The notes below the pieces were generated by a model that was not told the origin of the DNA, did not search any database, and saw only the letters and a list, made by a program, of their open reading frames with translations. Both the position numbers and the translations under genes were made by a program. A stretch of 24,000 nucleotides of DNA, from the NCBI GenBank assembly GCA_025041175.1, contig JAKCFJ010000001.1:1915526-1939525 (forward strand), read 5' to 3'. The first letter of the stretch is position 1. Every line of letters begins with the position of its first letter. Shown here piece after piece: positions 5,662 through 17,070 of the stretch. This DNA comes from Halobacteriales archaeon YIM A00010 (GTDB lineage Archaea > Halobacteriota > Halobacteria > Halobacteriales > Haloarculaceae).

Positions 5662-5682
5662 GATTTGCTGTATCAGCAAATC
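5662..5682. repeat. 21-bp palindrome, copy 2 (GATTTGCTG-TAT-CAGCAAATC)
   Basis: Perfect 9-bp arms. It lies 59-79 nt upstream of the carbamoyltransferase start (5603). GCAAAACGG occurs next to both copies (4337-4345 and 5646-5654). Confidence 0.8.
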
Positions 5683-6983: not shown

Positions 6984-8780
6984 ATGGACCTATCAGCACA
7001 GCTCGCTCTGACTGTTTTGATGGGGGTGTTTCTCGCTGCCGTGGCGATGGCCCTGTCGCGCATGGAGAACTGGCGGTCGTACACACCGCTCGTGAGCGGG
7101 GGAACCGCAGTGGGTGGAGAGACCGGCTACGTCTCCAAAGAAAAGCCGGCCGGCTTCACGCGCTGGTTGACAACGGTCGATCACAAGGACATCGGGATAC
7201 TGTACGGCGCGTTCGCAGTCATCTCCTTTGGCTGGGCTGGCGTGGCAGTGCTGTTGATGCGGGCAGAACTCATGACGCCCGCGATGGACATGCTCACCGG
7301 GCTTGGCGGTGAGAACTTCTACAACGGATTGATGACGAGCCACGGCATCACTATGCTGTTTCTGTTCGGAACGCCGATTCTCTCGGCGCTTGCGAACTAC
7401 TCGCTTCCGCTGCTCATCGGAGCCGACGACATGGCGTTCCCCCGGATCAACGCCATCGCGTTCTGGCTGCTGCCGCCGGCTGCGATCCTCATCTGGGCAG
7501 GGTTTTTCCTCGATCCGATGACGGACGGTGCTATTCAGGCTTCTCAGACGAGCTGGACGATGTACGCGCCGCTTTCGGCCGAACAGGCCAACCCCGGCGT
7601 GGATCTGTTCTTGCTGGGGTTACACCTGTCAGGGATTTCGGCCACGATGGGGGCGATCAACTTCATCGCAACCGTCTTCACCGAGCGCGCAGAGGACGTG
7701 AACTGGGCCAACCTCGACATCTTCTCGTGGACGATGCTCACCCAGTCGGGACTGATCCTGTTCGCGTTCCCACTTCTGGGAAGCGCGCTGATCATGTTGT
7801 TGCTGGACCGGAACTTCGGCACCACCTTTTTCGCCGCCGAGGGGGGCGGACCGATGCTCTGGCAGCATTTGTTCTGGTTCTTCGGGCATCCGGAGGTGTA
7901 CATCCTCATCTTGCCACCGATGGGCGTCGTGAGCCTCATCCTCCCCAAGTTCGCGGGCCGGAAGCTGTTTGGCTTCAAGTTCGTCGTCTACTCGACGCTG
8001 GCGATCGGTGTGCTTTCGTTTGGCGTGTGGGCACACCACATGTTCTCGACGGGGATCGACCCGCGCATCCGGCTGAGCTTCATGGCGGTGTCGCTGGCGA
8101 TCGCCATCCCGAGCGCCGTCAAAACGTTCAACTGGATCACCACGCTGTGGAACGGTGATATCCGGTTGACGGCGCCGATGCTGTTCTGTATCGGCTTCGT
8201 CTCCAACTTCATCATCGGCGGCGTGACCGGAGTCTTCCTCGCGGCCGTTCCGGTCGATCTTCTCCTTCACGACACGTATTACGTGGTCGGGCACTTCCAC
8301 TACCTCGTCATGGGCGCGATCGCGTTCGCCGGCTTTGCGGCCATGTACTACTGGTATCCGATCTTCACCGGCCGCATGTACCAGCGAACGCTCGCACGGT
8401 GGCACTTCTGGCTCTGGATGATCGGCTCCAACATCACCTTCTTTGCGATGTTGTTGTTGGGCTACGACGGCATGCCACGCCGGTACGCGACGTACGAACT
8501 CGCGGATGGCGGCGCGTTCTCGGCGCTCATCCAGAACCTCCACGTGATCGCAACCGTCGGCGCGTTCATCATGGCCGTCGGGACGATCATCTGGCTGTGG
8601 AACTTCGTGGTCTCGTGGTACGAAGGTCCCGAAGTCGGGGAAGATCCGTGGGATCTCCGGGAGTACGGCATGGAATCCCGGGAGTTCGAATGGCACGCCA
8701 AACGCATCCAGACGGCCGTCACCGACGGCGGCGAGGAAGAGGCCGCCACTGACGGTGGAACCGAATCGACCGACGAGTAA
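6984..8780 (+). CDS. coxA: Heme-copper (cytochrome c/quinol) oxidase subunit I
   Basis: 598 aa and polytopic, with WFFGHPEVYILILP, AHHMF and VVGHFHY metal-ligand motifs and an acidic C-terminal tail. Confidence 0.95.
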   Translation: MDLSAQLALTVLMGVFLAAVAMALSRMENWRSYTPLVSGGTAVGGETGYVSKEKPAGFTRWLTTVDHKDIGILYGAFAVISFGWAGVAVLLMRAELMTPAMDMLTGLGGENFYNGLMTSHGITMLFLFGTPILSALANYSLPLLIGADDMAFPRINAIAFWLLPPAAILIWAGFFLDPMTDGAIQASQTSWTMYAPLSAEQANPGVDLFLLGLHLSGISATMGAINFIATVFTERAEDVNWANLDIFSWTMLTQSGLILFAFPLLGSALIMLLLDRNFGTTFFAAEGGGPMLWQHLFWFFGHPEVYILILPPMGVVSLILPKFAGRKLFGFKFVVYSTLAIGVLSFGVWAHHMFSTGIDPRIRLSFMAVSLAIAIPSAVKTFNWITTLWNGDIRLTAPMLFCIGFVSNFIIGGVTGVFLAAVPVDLLLHDTYYVVGHFHYLVMGAIAFAGFAAMYYWYPIFTGRMYQRTLARWHFWLWMIGSNITFFAMLLLGYDGMPRRYATYELADGGAFSALIQNLHVIATVGAFIMAVGTIIWLWNFVVSWYEGPEVGEDPWDLREYGMESREFEWHAKRIQTAVTDGGEEEAATDGGTESTDE

Positions 8781-8862
8781 CGCTGTCCGCGATCCGCTGA
8801 TTCTCGCCCGTTCGTGTTACGCTCGTATCCACTCGAGGATGGCGAGGGATTCGAAACGAAGT

Positions 8863-8961
8863 ATACTGTCGGACAGATCCACGAACGGATTGCGACGGAA
8901 TATCCATCTGCTGTCTGGCGTTCACCAGCGTCTGATATTCAATCACCTCTGTCCGACAGTA
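8863..8961. repeat. Hairpin-ended mini-element, compact uninterrupted copy
   Basis: Perfect 13-bp inverted repeat: TACTGTCGGACAG (8864-8876) and CTGTCCGACAGTA (8949-8961). The interior is homologous to 246-318 plus 430-452. Confidence 0.8.
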
Positions 8962-8991
8962 ACAGTATGCGCGCGTCGCTACGAGAAGTGG

Positions 8992-9462
8992 ATGCCAGAC
9001 GTGGATATTCAGCGAGCGACCGGTGCCGATGCGAAAGCGCTCACAGCGGTGTACCGGAGCGCGTATCGGGAGAACCGCGAACTCGGATTTCCGGCCACAG
9101 CAGGATCAGTAACTCCCCCGACCGTCGCGGACTGGATTCGGGAGTGCCGGATCTACGCGGCCAGAACTGGTGGCGAGATCGTCGGCGGTGTACGACTCGA
9201 ACTGACGGAGAACGATCGCGCAAAGCTCAGCCGGTTTGGCGTTCACGAGGACTGCAAAGGAGAAGGGATCGGGAGTGAACTGCTCGATCACGCGGAGAAA
9301 CAGGCTCACGAACGCGGCTACGTGGTGATTTGGCTCACGACGCCCAAAAACCATCCGTATCTTCCCGGGTTCTATCGCCGTCGTGGATACGAAAAAACGG
9401 GAGACTACCCCCTAGAGAACCGCGAGTACGACGAAATTATTATGGAAAAGCAACTTCGATAG
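8992..9462 (+). CDS. GNAT-family N-acetyltransferase
   Basis: Start moved to the ATG at 8992 (MPDVDIQRATGADAKALTAVY...). Acetyl-CoA motif HEDCKGEGIGSELLDHAEKQAHERGY. The track's 5' extension overlaps coxA and runs through the repeat element. Confidence 0.85.
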   Translation: MPDVDIQRATGADAKALTAVYRSAYRENRELGFPATAGSVTPPTVADWIRECRIYAARTGGEIVGGVRLELTENDRAKLSRFGVHEDCKGEGIGSELLDHAEKQAHERGYVVIWLTTPKNHPYLPGFYRRRGYEKTGDYPLENREYDEIIMEKQLR

Positions 9463-9587
9463 AGGAGATCCTCGTACCGACCGAAAGACATCCGAATCAG
9501 GTGCGTAGAGCCCACTCGACTGTACGTCATTTGTATCTATTTACCGATTCCGATCGATCCACGCTTTGAACGCACGGATATCCCTCG

Positions 9588-9989
9588 TCACACATCGGAC
9601 TCACTGTTGGAATCTGTGTCATCGACCAACGCGTCCATCGTCTCGATGAATTCCGTCGAACGTTCGAGCAACTCGTTCACATCGGCGGGGACGGGCTGGT
9701 ATTCGTAGTCGGCCCGTTCTCTATAGTCGTATATCTGACTGAAAAACGTCCCATGAGTCGGAGCGAGCGCTCCGTTCTGGACCAGTTCTTTGCCGATCAG
9801 GACTTTGATGCCTTTGTGCGTCTTTAGATTGTGTCCTCGATCGTACAGGACAGCACGCGTCGCGTGGAAACACGCGTAGTACAGTCGATTCACCGCTGTC
9901 TTGTCCGACATGCCGCGATCCTTGAGCGTGTACACCTCGGAAAGAAGCGTGTGCGCCTCCTGGAGAGCGTCAGCAACGTCTTCATCCAT
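9588..9989 (-). CDS. HEPN-domain protein (putative toxin partner of the upstream nucleotidyltransferase)
   Basis: 133 aa and all-helical. NRLYYACFHATRAVL and YDYRERADYEY resemble the HEPN signature. Its start overlaps the stop of the upstream gene by 8 nt (ATGGATGA). Confidence 0.75.
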   Translation of the reverse strand: MDEDVADALQEAHTLLSEVYTLKDRGMSDKTAVNRLYYACFHATRAVLYDRGHNLKTHKGIKVLIGKELVQNGALAPTHGTFFSQIYDYRERADYEYQPVPADVNELLERSTEFIETMDALVDDTDSNSESDV

Positions 9990-10569
9990 ACACGCGGCCC
10001 TCTTGGAGTACGTTTTTGATGTACGCCCTGTCTCGTTGTTCCTCTAACTCCTCGACTGTTTTGAAATTCAAGGAGAGGGCAACGCTGTGTTCGAGCATCA
10101 CGTCAAACGCGATCTCGTAGGCAGGATCGTACACGGTTTCTCGGGTGGCTGTGGACGGTGTGATGACCAGTACGTCCACGTCGGAGTCGATGCCCCGCGC
10201 CTCACCGCGGGCCGTGCTCCCATACAGGATGAGCTGCTCGATCTCGTCTCCCCACTGCTCGGTCATCCGGGAGGCAAACGCCTCGAAGGCCTGTTCGTGT
10301 TGCGGGTCGGTGCGCACAGACCACACGAGCGAGTTTCCCACTTTCTTTTTATTGATCCGTTTGTCATCGGCTAATGCGTCAAGTCGGTGTTGTGCGCTCC
10401 GTCGATGAATGCCGATCTCATCAGCAACTTCCTGAGTCGAGGCCGGGGAATGCCTCCTGACAGCTTCCATGAATACACGATCAGGGTACGATCGCTCGAA
10501 ACGGCCTGACTGGTTATCACGATCCATCTCCTCCATAGGAGACGGTACGTCAACTGGCGTGAAAAGCAC
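9982..10569 (-). CDS. wHTH-fused minimal nucleotidyltransferase (MNT-type, putative antitoxin)
   Basis: LILYGSTARGEARGIDSDVDVLVI matches the G-S...D-x-D polymerase-beta-type NTase motif. The N-terminal roughly 85 aa (STQEVADEIGIHRRSAQHRLDALADDKRINKKKVGNSLVWSV) form a wHTH. An alternative start at Met12 is possible. Confidence 0.8.
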   Translation of the reverse strand: MLFTPVDVPSPMEEMDRDNQSGRFERSYPDRVFMEAVRRHSPASTQEVADEIGIHRRSAQHRLDALADDKRINKKKVGNSLVWSVRTDPQHEQAFEAFASRMTEQWGDEIEQLILYGSTARGEARGIDSDVDVLVITPSTATRETVYDPAYEIAFDVMLEHSVALSLNFKTVEELEEQRDRAYIKNVLQEGRVYG

Positions 10570-10611
10570 ACTGGTGACCGACGTGGAGGACGGCCCGGTT
10601 GGTCCGCGTCG

Positions 10612-11130
10612 TCAGTCTTCCCGGCTGTACCTCATCAGAACCAGTTCCTCGGTGCCCTCCTCGGGAATCTCGATGGCGGGATCGAACAGGTCGAATCCCA
10701 CCGATTCGTAGTAGGGAATCAGGCCGCGCCGACACCGCAACGAGAGACTCACGTTCTCCAACGCGGGATGATCGACGACCGCACTCATGAGCGTTTCACC
10801 GACCCCCTCGCCGCGGCGGTCGGCGGCGACAATCACATCACCAGAACGCTCCGCGTTCTGGTTAGCAGCCAGAAATCAAAGATTTCTGGCGACATCGAAC
10901 ACAATCGCGTAGTAGGTGTGATCGGTCATGACCCGCGCCGCGGCCACGAGTTCGCCGGCGTCTTCGACGCCGACGGCGACGTCCGTTTCGGAAAGCGCCG
11001 CCCGAACGTCCCCACTCTCGCGGTCGGCCCACCACTCGTATCCTTCGTATAGGGCAGTCAACGCTTCAGCATCGTCGGGTGTTAGATCCCTGATTTCACT
11101 CACAGCTGATCGATCGTCGTCACCGGACAA
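10612..11130 (-). pseudogene. GNAT-family acetyltransferase interrupted by a 51-bp insertion carrying an in-frame TGA
   Basis: ORFs 10876-11130 (...YYAIVFDV-ARNL*) and 10612-10836 ((V)IVAADRRGEGVGETLM...) are in the same frame. Together they form one GNAT protein once 10840-10896 is removed. Confidence 0.85.
10840..10890. mobile_element. 51-bp double-hairpin insertion with flanking direct repeat
   Basis: Two hairpins: ACCAGAACGC-TCC-GCGTTCTGGT (10840-10862) and CCAGAAATC-AAA-GATTTCTGG (10869-10889). The ends are inverted ((A/G)CCAGAA). It is flanked by cACATC (10834-10839) and gACATC (10891-10896). Confidence 0.65.
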
Positions 11131-17002: not shown

Positions 17003-17012
17003 GTCTTCCACC

Positions 17013-17018
17013 TTTTTT
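17013..17018 (+). terminator. Oligo-T terminator after the tRNA
   Basis: A T6 run lies 11 nt after the tRNA 3' end, followed by an 8-bp hairpin GGGTGAGC-AGA-GCTCACCC (17025-17043). Confidence 0.55.
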
Positions 17019-17049
17019 CCGTTCGGGTGAGCAGAGCTCACCCTCACGC

Positions 17050-17070
17050 AAAAAACGTGGGCGAAAAAAA
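17050..17070 (-). terminator. Oligo-T terminators (T7 and T6 on the reverse strand) for the 17180-17737 gene
   Basis: A6 (17050-17055) and A7 (17064-17070) on the + strand read as T-runs downstream of the reverse-strand gene. Confidence 0.45.

Follow-up and report, generated by a model that had tools for sequence, protein, structure and literature searches.

The 24,000-nucleotide stretch of Halobacteriales archaeon YIM A00010 analyzed here (contig JAKCFJ010000001.1, positions 1,915,526 to 1,939,525 of the forward strand; hereafter the window, with positions counted from its first letter) raises the question of why a GNAT acetyltransferase gene is split into two short open reading frames (ORFs) at the very place where two hairpins lie side by side. 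A reading of the letters alone (the sequence-only reading) had taken the interruption for a very small non-autonomous insertion with a target duplication and terminal inverted repeats. Our analysis leads us to regard it, with good though not full confidence, as one copy of a family of double-hairpin elements (DHEs) of about 57 nt that occurs across the Halobacteria, is mobile and linked to the ends of insertion sequences (ISs), and is moved in trans.

The window DHE spans 57 nt on the plus strand (10837-10893) and consists of ATC, hairpin 1, the linker TAGCA, hairpin 2, and GAC. Owing to a repeat of ACATC, the 57 nt can be placed anywhere from 10834-10890 through 10840-10896; the placement at 10837-10893 is the one that fits the ends of the family. 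Hairpin 1 (10840-10862, plus strand; ACCAGAACGC-TCC-GCGTTCTGGT) and hairpin 2 (10868-10890, plus strand; GCCAGAAATC-AAA-GATTTCTGGC) each have a perfect 10-bp stem and a 3-nt loop. They fold separately and differ in their inner stems, and the 5-nt linker lies between them (10863-10867, plus strand). The left flanking repeat, cACATC (10834-10839, plus strand), combines the target bases CAC with the first bases of the element, ATC, and the right one, gACATC (10891-10896, plus strand), its last bases, GAC, with the ATC of the target; the exact part of the repeat is 5 nt. The sequences of the 51-bp two-hairpin segment (10840-10890) and of both flanks are as the sequence-only reading had described them, and so is the 10-bp stem of hairpin 1. 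The stem of hairpin 2, given there as 9 bp, has 10 bp, and the two hairpins, called adjacent, are a neighboring pair yet 5 nt apart.

Chance is excluded as the origin of this structure by pattern counts, folding energy, and shuffled controls. The pattern CCAGAA-N3-14-TTCTGG was observed twice where 0.00 occurrences were expected (100 shuffles), the DNA fold of the insert region reaches -22.9 kcal/mol as against -10.5 ± 2.4 for shuffled sequences (z = -5.2), and adjacent hairpin pairs are absent from 702 kb of shuffled haloarchaeal DNA. Within the window, 10840-10890 is the sole adjacent hairpin pair. A covariance model built from 43 sequences, the window copy included, scores that copy at 83.7 bits on the plus strand and 55.8 bits on the minus strand.

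The host GNAT gene lies on the minus strand at 10612-11103, with the insert inside it. As judged from the N-termini of its orthologues, translation most likely starts at the GTG at 11103; a TTG at 11130 is less likely. The 5' part of the gene (10894-11103, minus strand) runs from this GTG to ...YYAIVFD, and the 3' part (10612-10836, minus strand) from (V)IVAADRRGEGVGETLM... to the stop codon, including the acetyl-CoA-binding motif A, R-x-x-G-x-G. Read through the insert, the frame gives ...YYAIVFDV, then ARNL, a stop, and FLAANQNAERSGDV from the insert, then IVAADRRGEG...; the stop is a TGA at 10878-10876 (10876-10878, minus strand; CTT TGA on the gene strand) made up of the hairpin-2 loop and the next two bases. 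Once the insert is removed, the site reads ...TTCGATGTGATT... and the restored protein of 144 aa matches PF00583 (1.5e-7), carries R-x-x-G-x-G, qualifies as a GNAT protein, and is 63 to 76% identical to full-length orthologues of about 145 aa; with the insert present, scores against the Acetyltransf_1/7/10 profiles fall. The sequence-only reading was therefore right that deletion restores a GNAT protein with motif A, and right about an addition of 57 nt (19 codons) that keeps the frame and brings in the TGA. The two orphan ORFs of 84 and 74 aa are what remains on either side of the recent break in a single acetyltransferase gene; the public record lists the 74-aa one as a protein of its own.

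Comparison with relatives shows the site without the insert. The 19 residues are missing from 14 of 14 aligned orthologous proteins, none of which carries a comparable loop by nature; the best 120 GNAT homologues are nearly all 143 to 149 aa long; and in a DNA comparison with three orthologous genes a clean 57-nt gap opens at TTC|GATGTG. Three syntenic assemblies of close relatives (loci L117-L119 in our numbering) share with the window the gene order GNAT, HEPN, MNT, GNAT, DUF7520, Usp, gcvP and are 96 to 100% identical to it downstream of the split gene; each has an intact 140-aa GNAT gene without the insert, the site reading GTA TTT GAC GTG ATT. The alignment proposed as a check on the sequence-only reading thus returns a clean 57-nt insertion in all three comparisons. 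A metagenome scan for close relatives of this GNAT protein found none above 63% identity. At 60 alignment columns that are at least 95% conserved, the window protein has a single change of its own, and this near-absence of other changes indicates that the gene has had no time to decay. On these comparisons, a DHE copy has recently inserted into the GNAT gene. The insertion site presumably lies inside strand β4, directly before the R-x-x-G-x-G acetyl-CoA loop, as we assume from general knowledge of the GNAT fold. Because of this position and of the in-frame TGA, the gene is very probably inactive.

A further difference from the three syntenic relatives lies next to the insert. Window positions 8750-10700 are only 64 to 90% identical to L117-L119, with 96 to 100% identity on both sides; its contents are a second GNAT gene (8755-9462), a toxin-antitoxin pair of the HEPN/nucleotidyltransferase type (9588-9989 and 9982-10569), and about 90 nt from the end of the split GNAT gene, and the block looks like a replaced, fast-evolving 2-kb island. 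BLAST alignments split at the DHE, which would place it at a recombination breakpoint; this was rejected, as in the identity profile the divergent block ends near 10700, about 140 nt from the element.

The window copy belongs to a dispersed family. A short-sequence BLAST search against plasmids matched 35 records, all haloarchaeal. A scan of one genome per prokaryotic species with the pattern CCAGAA-N9-TTCKGGTTAGCA gave 97 matches, 88 of them in Halobacteria and all of these with complementary inner stems; the remaining nine, outside Halobacteria, form no hairpin and lie within chance expectation. Genera with copies include Halorubrum, Halobellus, Haloplanus, Halolamina, Halorientalis, Halalkalicoccus, Halarchaeum, Salarchaeum, Halogeometricum, and Salinigranum, among others. 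The search for the hairpin unit beyond the window, also proposed in the sequence-only reading, therefore leads to about 88 places in Halobacteria. An earlier pattern, a pair of CCAGAA...TTCTGG hairpins, picked up only AT-rich, terminator-like repeats in viral contigs; the refined pattern gave two non-hairpin chance matches in viral contigs and none in a phage collection. No Rfam family matched the window or seven DHE-bearing loci, and no description of haloarchaeal double-hairpin elements was found in the limited collection of literature searched.

The family module reads 5'-RTC, a 23-nt perfect hairpin, TAGCA, a second 23-nt perfect hairpin, and GAC-3'. For copies of the CCAGAA type, the search pattern itself prescribed the TAGCA linker, which is also present in Halocatena variants with other hairpins. 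Beyond the CCAGAA type, a wider set carries other hairpins (CACGAGAGC, GACGAGACGC, TCGTCAGACC, and others) in the same geometry, with connectors TRGC(A) and GAC|RTC, and the 702 kb of DHE-bearing loci contain 130 adjacent hairpin pairs versus 0 after shuffling. An exact-sequence look-up assigns the window to a Halocatena-like genome, and variants are also found on plasmids of that genus (L008, L123, L122). Copies are thus dispersed across the Halobacteria, and close relatives differ in which sites are filled and which are empty.

These data bear on the idea that the window feature is a unique local event or an artifact: a palindrome that duplication and inversion produced on the spot, or a mistake in the assembly. 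Such an origin would predict the single copy in the 24-kb window and the lack of any in the 8.5-kb contig of the relatives, but dozens of copies in other genera agree base for base with its connectors and stems, there is no source sequence in the neighborhood, and the 74-aa downstream ORF is present in the public record of the genome. We give this explanation practically no credence.

A 23-mer identical to hairpin 1 of the window is present in several haloarchaeal plasmids and genomes. In pNRC200 of Halobacterium salinarum NRC-1 (L004, 3001-3023) it stands alone between genes, 100% identical over 23 nt, with a different, imperfect hairpin upstream; single hairpins of the DHE type therefore also exist. 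A second type of connector (GTCC, hairpin, TGTGCG, hairpin, AACG) was seen at L063 5564-5613, L027 2771-2817, L100 5133-5180, L094 4723-4772, and L003 1514-1562. The L063 copy lies about 125 nt upstream of the main slot at the right end of tnpB, at a TCAA^CGCC site (^ marks the insertion point) common to L005, and the L003 copy about 285 nt upstream of the tnpB start, where the left-end region would be. These copies point to the existence of several element subfamilies and of two or more slots in the guide-RNA-encoding 3' region of tnpB.

Stems stay perfect through paired changes. In 43 distinct copies of full geometry, 98.1% of stem positions are paired, and 107 two-sided (compensatory) changes were counted, a number that none of 500 shuffles reaches; in hairpin 2, seven of the ten pairs vary on both sides. 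The near-absence of G-U pairs from these stems points to a constraint on DNA palindromes and not on an RNA helix. Loops, for their part, invert. They occur in complementary pairs (GGA 13 and TCC 11, GAA 10 and TTC 3, AAA 7 and TTT 4), and IS copies L051, L084, and L093 of Halorubrum sp. CSM-61 differ from L056 only by an inverted hairpin-1 loop, as do L012 and L072 from L040 in Halobellus rufus. Flanks of these loop-inverted copies (25 to 55 nt on each side; loops GGA/TCC and GAA/TTC) are the same or one base different; loop flipping is therefore faster than point mutation. Intrastrand template switching is established for bacterial quasi-palindromes and, acting at the DHE palindromes, would be the simplest account of both loop inversion and stem perfection.

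What the element adds to its target can be read from four other sites. At L063/L079 the insertion TCCG^[GTC-51-GAC]^GCTTC adds 57 nt, and its deletion restores S-Q-S-G-F-N-L-K exactly; at L064, TACC^[ATC...GAC]^ACCG adds 56 nt, one loop base having been lost; at the tnpB right end, CCCC^[ATC-51-GAC]^ACCC adds 57 nt relative to ISNph20; and at L005, where the empty site can be inferred, 57 nt are added as well. None of the four has a duplicated flank, and in all of them the element starts with RTC and ends with GAC or AAC. L031 carries two units head to tail, joined as GAC|ATC, with a total length of 112 nt. These sites and the tandem define the unit as RTC, a core (51 nt in the CCAGAA type), and GAC or AAC, without target duplication; a DHE adds a fixed unit and leaves its target unduplicated. 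Reading the insertions in the IS200/IS605 manner, with xxTC as the target, was rejected, as it breaks the conserved tnpB motif SQSGF in L063.

The repeat in the window has another source. A target CAC^ATC that receives an element ATC...GAC yields cACATC...gACATC, so that the ACATC repeat arises because the target resembles the joined ends of the element (GAC + ATC). The repeat would then be no target duplication made by a transposase, as the sequence-only reading had it. Its broader proposal of a tiny non-autonomous mobile element holds insofar as the family is dispersed, too short to encode a protein, and able to break a gene, whereas the classical anatomy of target duplication and terminal inverted repeats gives way to the four sites that add 56 to 57 nt and duplicate nothing. 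That anatomy would make the DHE a classical MITE (a miniature transposable element with inverted repeats), its inverted termini CCAGAA/TTCTGG cut by a DDE transposase whose staggered cut leaves a 5-6-bp duplication, ACATC. The cACATC/gACATC flanks of the window copy, the dispersal of the family, and the near symmetry of the element, whose end ATCACCAGAA matches the reverse complement of the other end, GTCGCCAGAA, at 8 of 10 positions, would all suit a MITE. Set against them, besides the absence of duplication from at least four other insertions, are the arithmetic (51 nt plus a 5-bp duplication make 56 nt, whereas 57 are observed), the conservation of the supposedly duplicated ATC and GAC at the ends of copies in unrelated contexts, and the fact that no autonomous or transposase-bearing IS with the same ends was seen in the ~700 kb of DHE-bearing loci. 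We consider a MITE very unlikely.

Sites resembling the joined ends recur. In Haloplanus ruber (L023, 2357-2414) and Salinigranum sp. DT28 (L037, 2092-2149), a 58-nt variant whose hairpin 2 has a 4-nt loop interrupts the β-carbonic-anhydrase gene at the same codon, where it causes a frameshift and a TGA; the target is GACGAC^ATCGAC, with 58 nt added. The two copies differ at 3 to 4 of 58 positions, while their flanks have diverged (dS ~0.6), each sitting in its genus-specific background; the site is empty in the congeners H. aerogenes and S. rubrum (L127, L128), and full-length proteins make up 119 of the 120 best homologues. Taken together, these observations argue for two independent insertions at one hot spot. 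An old, tolerated insertion, considered in view of the flank dS and a downstream omega of 0.38, was rejected on the grounds of the empty congeners and the full-length homologues. The window insertion lies at AC^ATCGA, a site of the hot-spot type, and right flanks ATCG are also found in L070 and L123. Left flanks vary: TCAC, CGAC, CCCC, TCCG, TACC, CAAT. Comparisons of this sort are direct signs that DHEs are mobile to the present day.

Copies cluster at the terminal palindromes of IS200/IS605 elements, within them or next to them, which places them in the 3' region of tnpB and its omega RNA. Most occupy one spot, GCCCC^ACCCTC, in the 3' end of tnpB genes of the IS1341 type, which belong to three or more divergent subfamilies; at this spot the copies are translated as G-S-P-[ITRSQRLLVSSQNSESSDD]-T-L-K-E. 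The published right end of ISNph20, ...GGAAGCCCCACCCTCAGCGAG...AGGGTGGGGTAGTTCAC, represents the empty version of this site and thereby identifies the spot as the 5' arm of the near-terminal right-end palindrome. Of 91 copies, 27 lie inside tblastn matches to tnpB, and many more have the same right-end flanks. A second slot lies upstream in the tnpB right-end region (L005; L063 5564), and the N-terminal coding region of tnpB is hit in L063/L079 (Halogeometricum) and L064. Beside tnpA, a variant interrupts the left-end palindrome in L007, and the copies in L030 and L091 abut the terminal palindrome. In the right-end palindrome of ISNph12, a 54-nt alignment gap in Table S9 of PMC3119063 is filled by TCGT ACGGAAGAC GGA GTCTTCCGT GATG ACGAGAGAC GAA GTCCCTCG AACCA, a double hairpin built like a DHE that passes without comment in the passages of that paper that were consulted. 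The DHE hairpins (ACCAGAA...) are unlike the palindromes they interrupt (GCCCCACCCT/AGGGTGGGG, CCCGCTG-TTCA-CGGCGGG, and CCCCGACCC/GGGTCGGGG).

Sites away from ISs comprise intergenic hairpin arrays, the GNAT gene of the window, the β-carbonic-anhydrase genes, and two genes in which a variant lies in frame and leaves the frame open. In L069 (1343-1393) the gene is one for a low-molecular-weight phosphatase/ArsC-like protein that continues to match the LMWPc profile in full. In L122 (1498-1550), from a Halocatena marina plasmid, the variant occupies the C-terminal tail of an ABC ATPase and is annotated as belonging to that protein.

We propose that a DHE probably moves as a defined unit, either as folded single-stranded DNA or as a small circle, that it prefers sites resembling its own joined ends (GAC^ATC), which would explain the apparent duplication in the window, and that the enzyme would be supplied in trans. 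The Y1 (HUH) transposase TnpA of IS200/IS605 recognizes DNA hairpins, makes no target duplication, and works at IS ends. It is our leading candidate because it binds hairpins, leaves no duplication, and is active where DHEs accumulate; naming it is still a guess, to which we give somewhat less than an even chance.

Several points weigh against the reading of the feature as an IS-linked element moved in trans. An IS200/IS605 element has asymmetric ends and inserts 3' of a conserved target of 4-5 nt, whereas the left flanks of DHEs vary and both DHE ends lie 3 nt from the hairpin foot; the dissimilarity between DHE hairpins and the palindromes they interrupt points the same way. The window holds neither tnpA nor tnpB. 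DHEs are low in copy number in Halocatena, with one per 100 kb on the Halocatena marina plasmid and one in the window. Copies associated with tnpB may descend from a few old insertions spread with the IS, and the enrichment at IS ends rests on perhaps 6 to 7 independent events. The loss of GNAT activity, finally, is deduced from the position of the insert in the fold.

The main alternative is a different engine. A circle with joined ends ..GAC-ATC.. would recombine with a matching core by means of a site-specific recombinase or by microhomology-guided copying (template switching), TnpA playing no part, and the flanking repeat would be the shared core. Targets do mimic the joined ends, as in the window (CAC^ATCGA), at the twice-hit GACGAC^ATCGAC, in the GAC|ATC tandem, and at the ATCG flanks of L070 and L123, and the left flanks lack the conservation expected of an IS200/IS605 target. 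Several other sites, on the contrary, share only C^A with the joined ends or nothing at all (CCCC^ACCC, TCCG^GCTT, CAAT^GCC), no recombinase is linked to the element, and its fixed unit length speaks against imprecise template switching. Such an engine strikes us as unlikely.

The insert might also be tolerated or regulated, the GNAT gene being conditionally expressed through removal of the insert from the mRNA, through ribosome skipping (take-off at GAU GUC, landing at GAU GUG 57 nt on), or through inversion of the hairpin-2 loop. Its length equals 19 codons, and in the GNAT frame only the loop-dependent TGA blocks translation; as read from the sequence, inverting the loop, with TTT becoming AAA on the gene strand, would change CTT TGA into CAA AGA and leave all 19 codons of the insert open. 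Loops do invert within the family, variants lie in frame in tnpB, in the low-molecular-weight phosphatase gene, and in the ABC ATPase tail, and the GNAT gene is otherwise undecayed. This lack of decay is, on the other side, equally explained by a recent insertion, and 19 residues placed in β4 before R-x-x-G-x-G would, from what we assume of the fold, very likely be destructive even if translated. Other DHE insertions have no matching take-off and landing codons, and in some of them the length is 56 or 58 nt or stops are present (L063, L064, L023/L037); the family is therefore not built for read-through. There is no bulge-helix-bulge splice motif: an archaeal bulge-helix-bulge intron was rejected, since the RNA fold of the gene strand shows the two hairpins and a helix between the flanks (GAUCACA/UGUGAUU), with no 3-nt bulges around a 4-bp helix at the junctions. 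We judge a tolerated or regulated insert to be extremely improbable.

Returning to the IS-linked family, a bolder statement would be that DHEs form a distinct, so far undescribed class of archaeal mobile DNA that parasitizes IS200/IS605, itself a parasite, integrates without duplication at sites resembling its joined ends, stands as modules in the 3' region of tnpB, where the omega-RNA scaffold is encoded, and also hits ordinary genes; we offer this as a rather doubtful extension. If it were true, DHEs would rank with the smallest known mobile elements and might serve to report or to modulate the activity of TnpA and TnpB in haloarchaea. Hairpin pairs of 57 nt bear on the minimum substrate for DNA mobility. 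Their position at ends that are bound by TnpA and encode the TnpB guide RNA makes them relevant to the control of IS200/IS605 systems, and they may matter for the engineering of haloarchaeal TnpB guide RNAs. Being 19 codons long, they can remain in proteins as additional peptide segments, which is one way for annotation errors to arise.

Other inverted repeats were noted in the window. One at 17008-17060, imperfect and 25 nt long, has a stem rich in T/A, CCACCTTTTTTCCGTTCGGGTGAGC / GCTCACCCTCACGCAAAAAACGTGG, and may be a bidirectional terminator. At 1004-1045, inside a glycosyltransferase ORF (456-1820), the perfect hairpin TCGAGGACAT-GTCG-ATGTCCTCGA overlaps a second one (1024-1045), and another perfect hairpin, GATTTGCTG-TAT-CAGCAAATC, lies at 5662-5682; those at 1004-1045 and 5662-5682 have no connectors of the DHE family. 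No tRNA was found in the window.

Where, then, do DHEs stand among known systems? They are not classical MITEs, not an Rfam family, not viral, and not a local one-off. The double-hairpin elements of fungal mitochondria likewise consist of two adjacent short hairpins and are dispersed, probably mobile, and found both between and within genes (Paquin et al. 2000, as summarized in PMC10085805), but genomes and sequences are unrelated and the likeness is one of analogy only. Rickettsia palindromic elements and intragenic REP (repetitive extragenic palindrome) dimers are palindromic inserts that keep the frame and persist as peptide segments, as DHEs do in tnpB, the phosphatase, and the ABC ATPase. 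The Rickettsia element RPE-1 is reported to measure 100 to 150 bp. In contrast to these inserts, the DHE of the window has a stop codon and is located in a strand at the core of the fold.

With REPs, BIMEs, and REPINs, DHEs share short palindromic units, tags at the foot of the stem, and frequent dimers or arrays (PMC3116915, PMC3733652, PMC2817692), and their 23-nt units with the tags ATC, TAGCA, and GAC fit the definition of a REP unit, a palindrome of 20 to 40 nt. REP dimers in ORFs encode 20 to 30 residues and also insert into other palindromes (PMC3116915, PMC3733652, PMC2817692). A trans-acting, hairpin-recognizing HUH enzyme working on single strands (RAYT, of the Y1 type) is proposed for REPs, as an enzyme acting in trans is here. 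REPs are, however, described only in bacteria, with none in archaea among the REP literature searched; their stems are imperfect whereas those of DHEs are perfect; in a REPIN two inverted copies fold together as a single long hairpin whereas a DHE has two independent, differing hairpins; the DHE copy number is low in Halocatena; and no RAYT-like gene is tied to DHEs.

Palindrome-associated transposable elements (PATEs) are derivatives of IS200/IS605 that retain only the termini and reach down to 52 bp, according to PMC3119063 and PMC4615843. They resemble DHEs in being based on palindromes, lacking classical inverted terminal repeats and target duplications, occurring in the same genomes, and being tied to IS200/IS605. 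The palindromes of a PATE are, however, the IS's own ends, for instance GCCCCACCCT...AGGGTGGGG followed by the end TTCAC, whereas DHE hairpins differ from such palindromes and interrupt them; a PATE moreover has a 4-5-nt targeting sequence and unequal distances at its two ends, whereas a DHE has symmetric 3-nt ends and no conserved target in its left flank. As judged by these ends, DHEs are not PATEs in the strict sense.

The small mobile repeats (SMRs) of Haloquadratum walsbyi (HqIRS40-43 and HqIRS55; Dyall-Smith, Pfeiffer et al. 2011, PMC3119063) measure 79 to 112 bp, with one family of 296 bp, and are known from this single species; their movement is called 'enigmatic' by the authors. In that description, SMRs are short and free of a transposase, have inverted termini unlike those of known transposons, and make no target duplication, all of which also holds for DHEs. 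SMRs prefer to insert into near-terminal palindromes of the IS605 type or of PATEs; the DHE family does the same, at the right-end 5' arm in at least three tnpB subfamilies, at the left end in L007, adjoining the palindrome in L030 and L091, and in the right-end loop of ISNph12, whereas the window copy lies in an ordinary gene. The tandem DHE pair of L031, at 112 nt, falls inside the SMR size range. Plasmid PL47 proved to carry no SMR. A DHE unit differs in its 57 nt and its occurrence in many genera, and the two are likened by published description, not by sequence. By this analogy, SMRs appear to be the closest described elements to DHEs.

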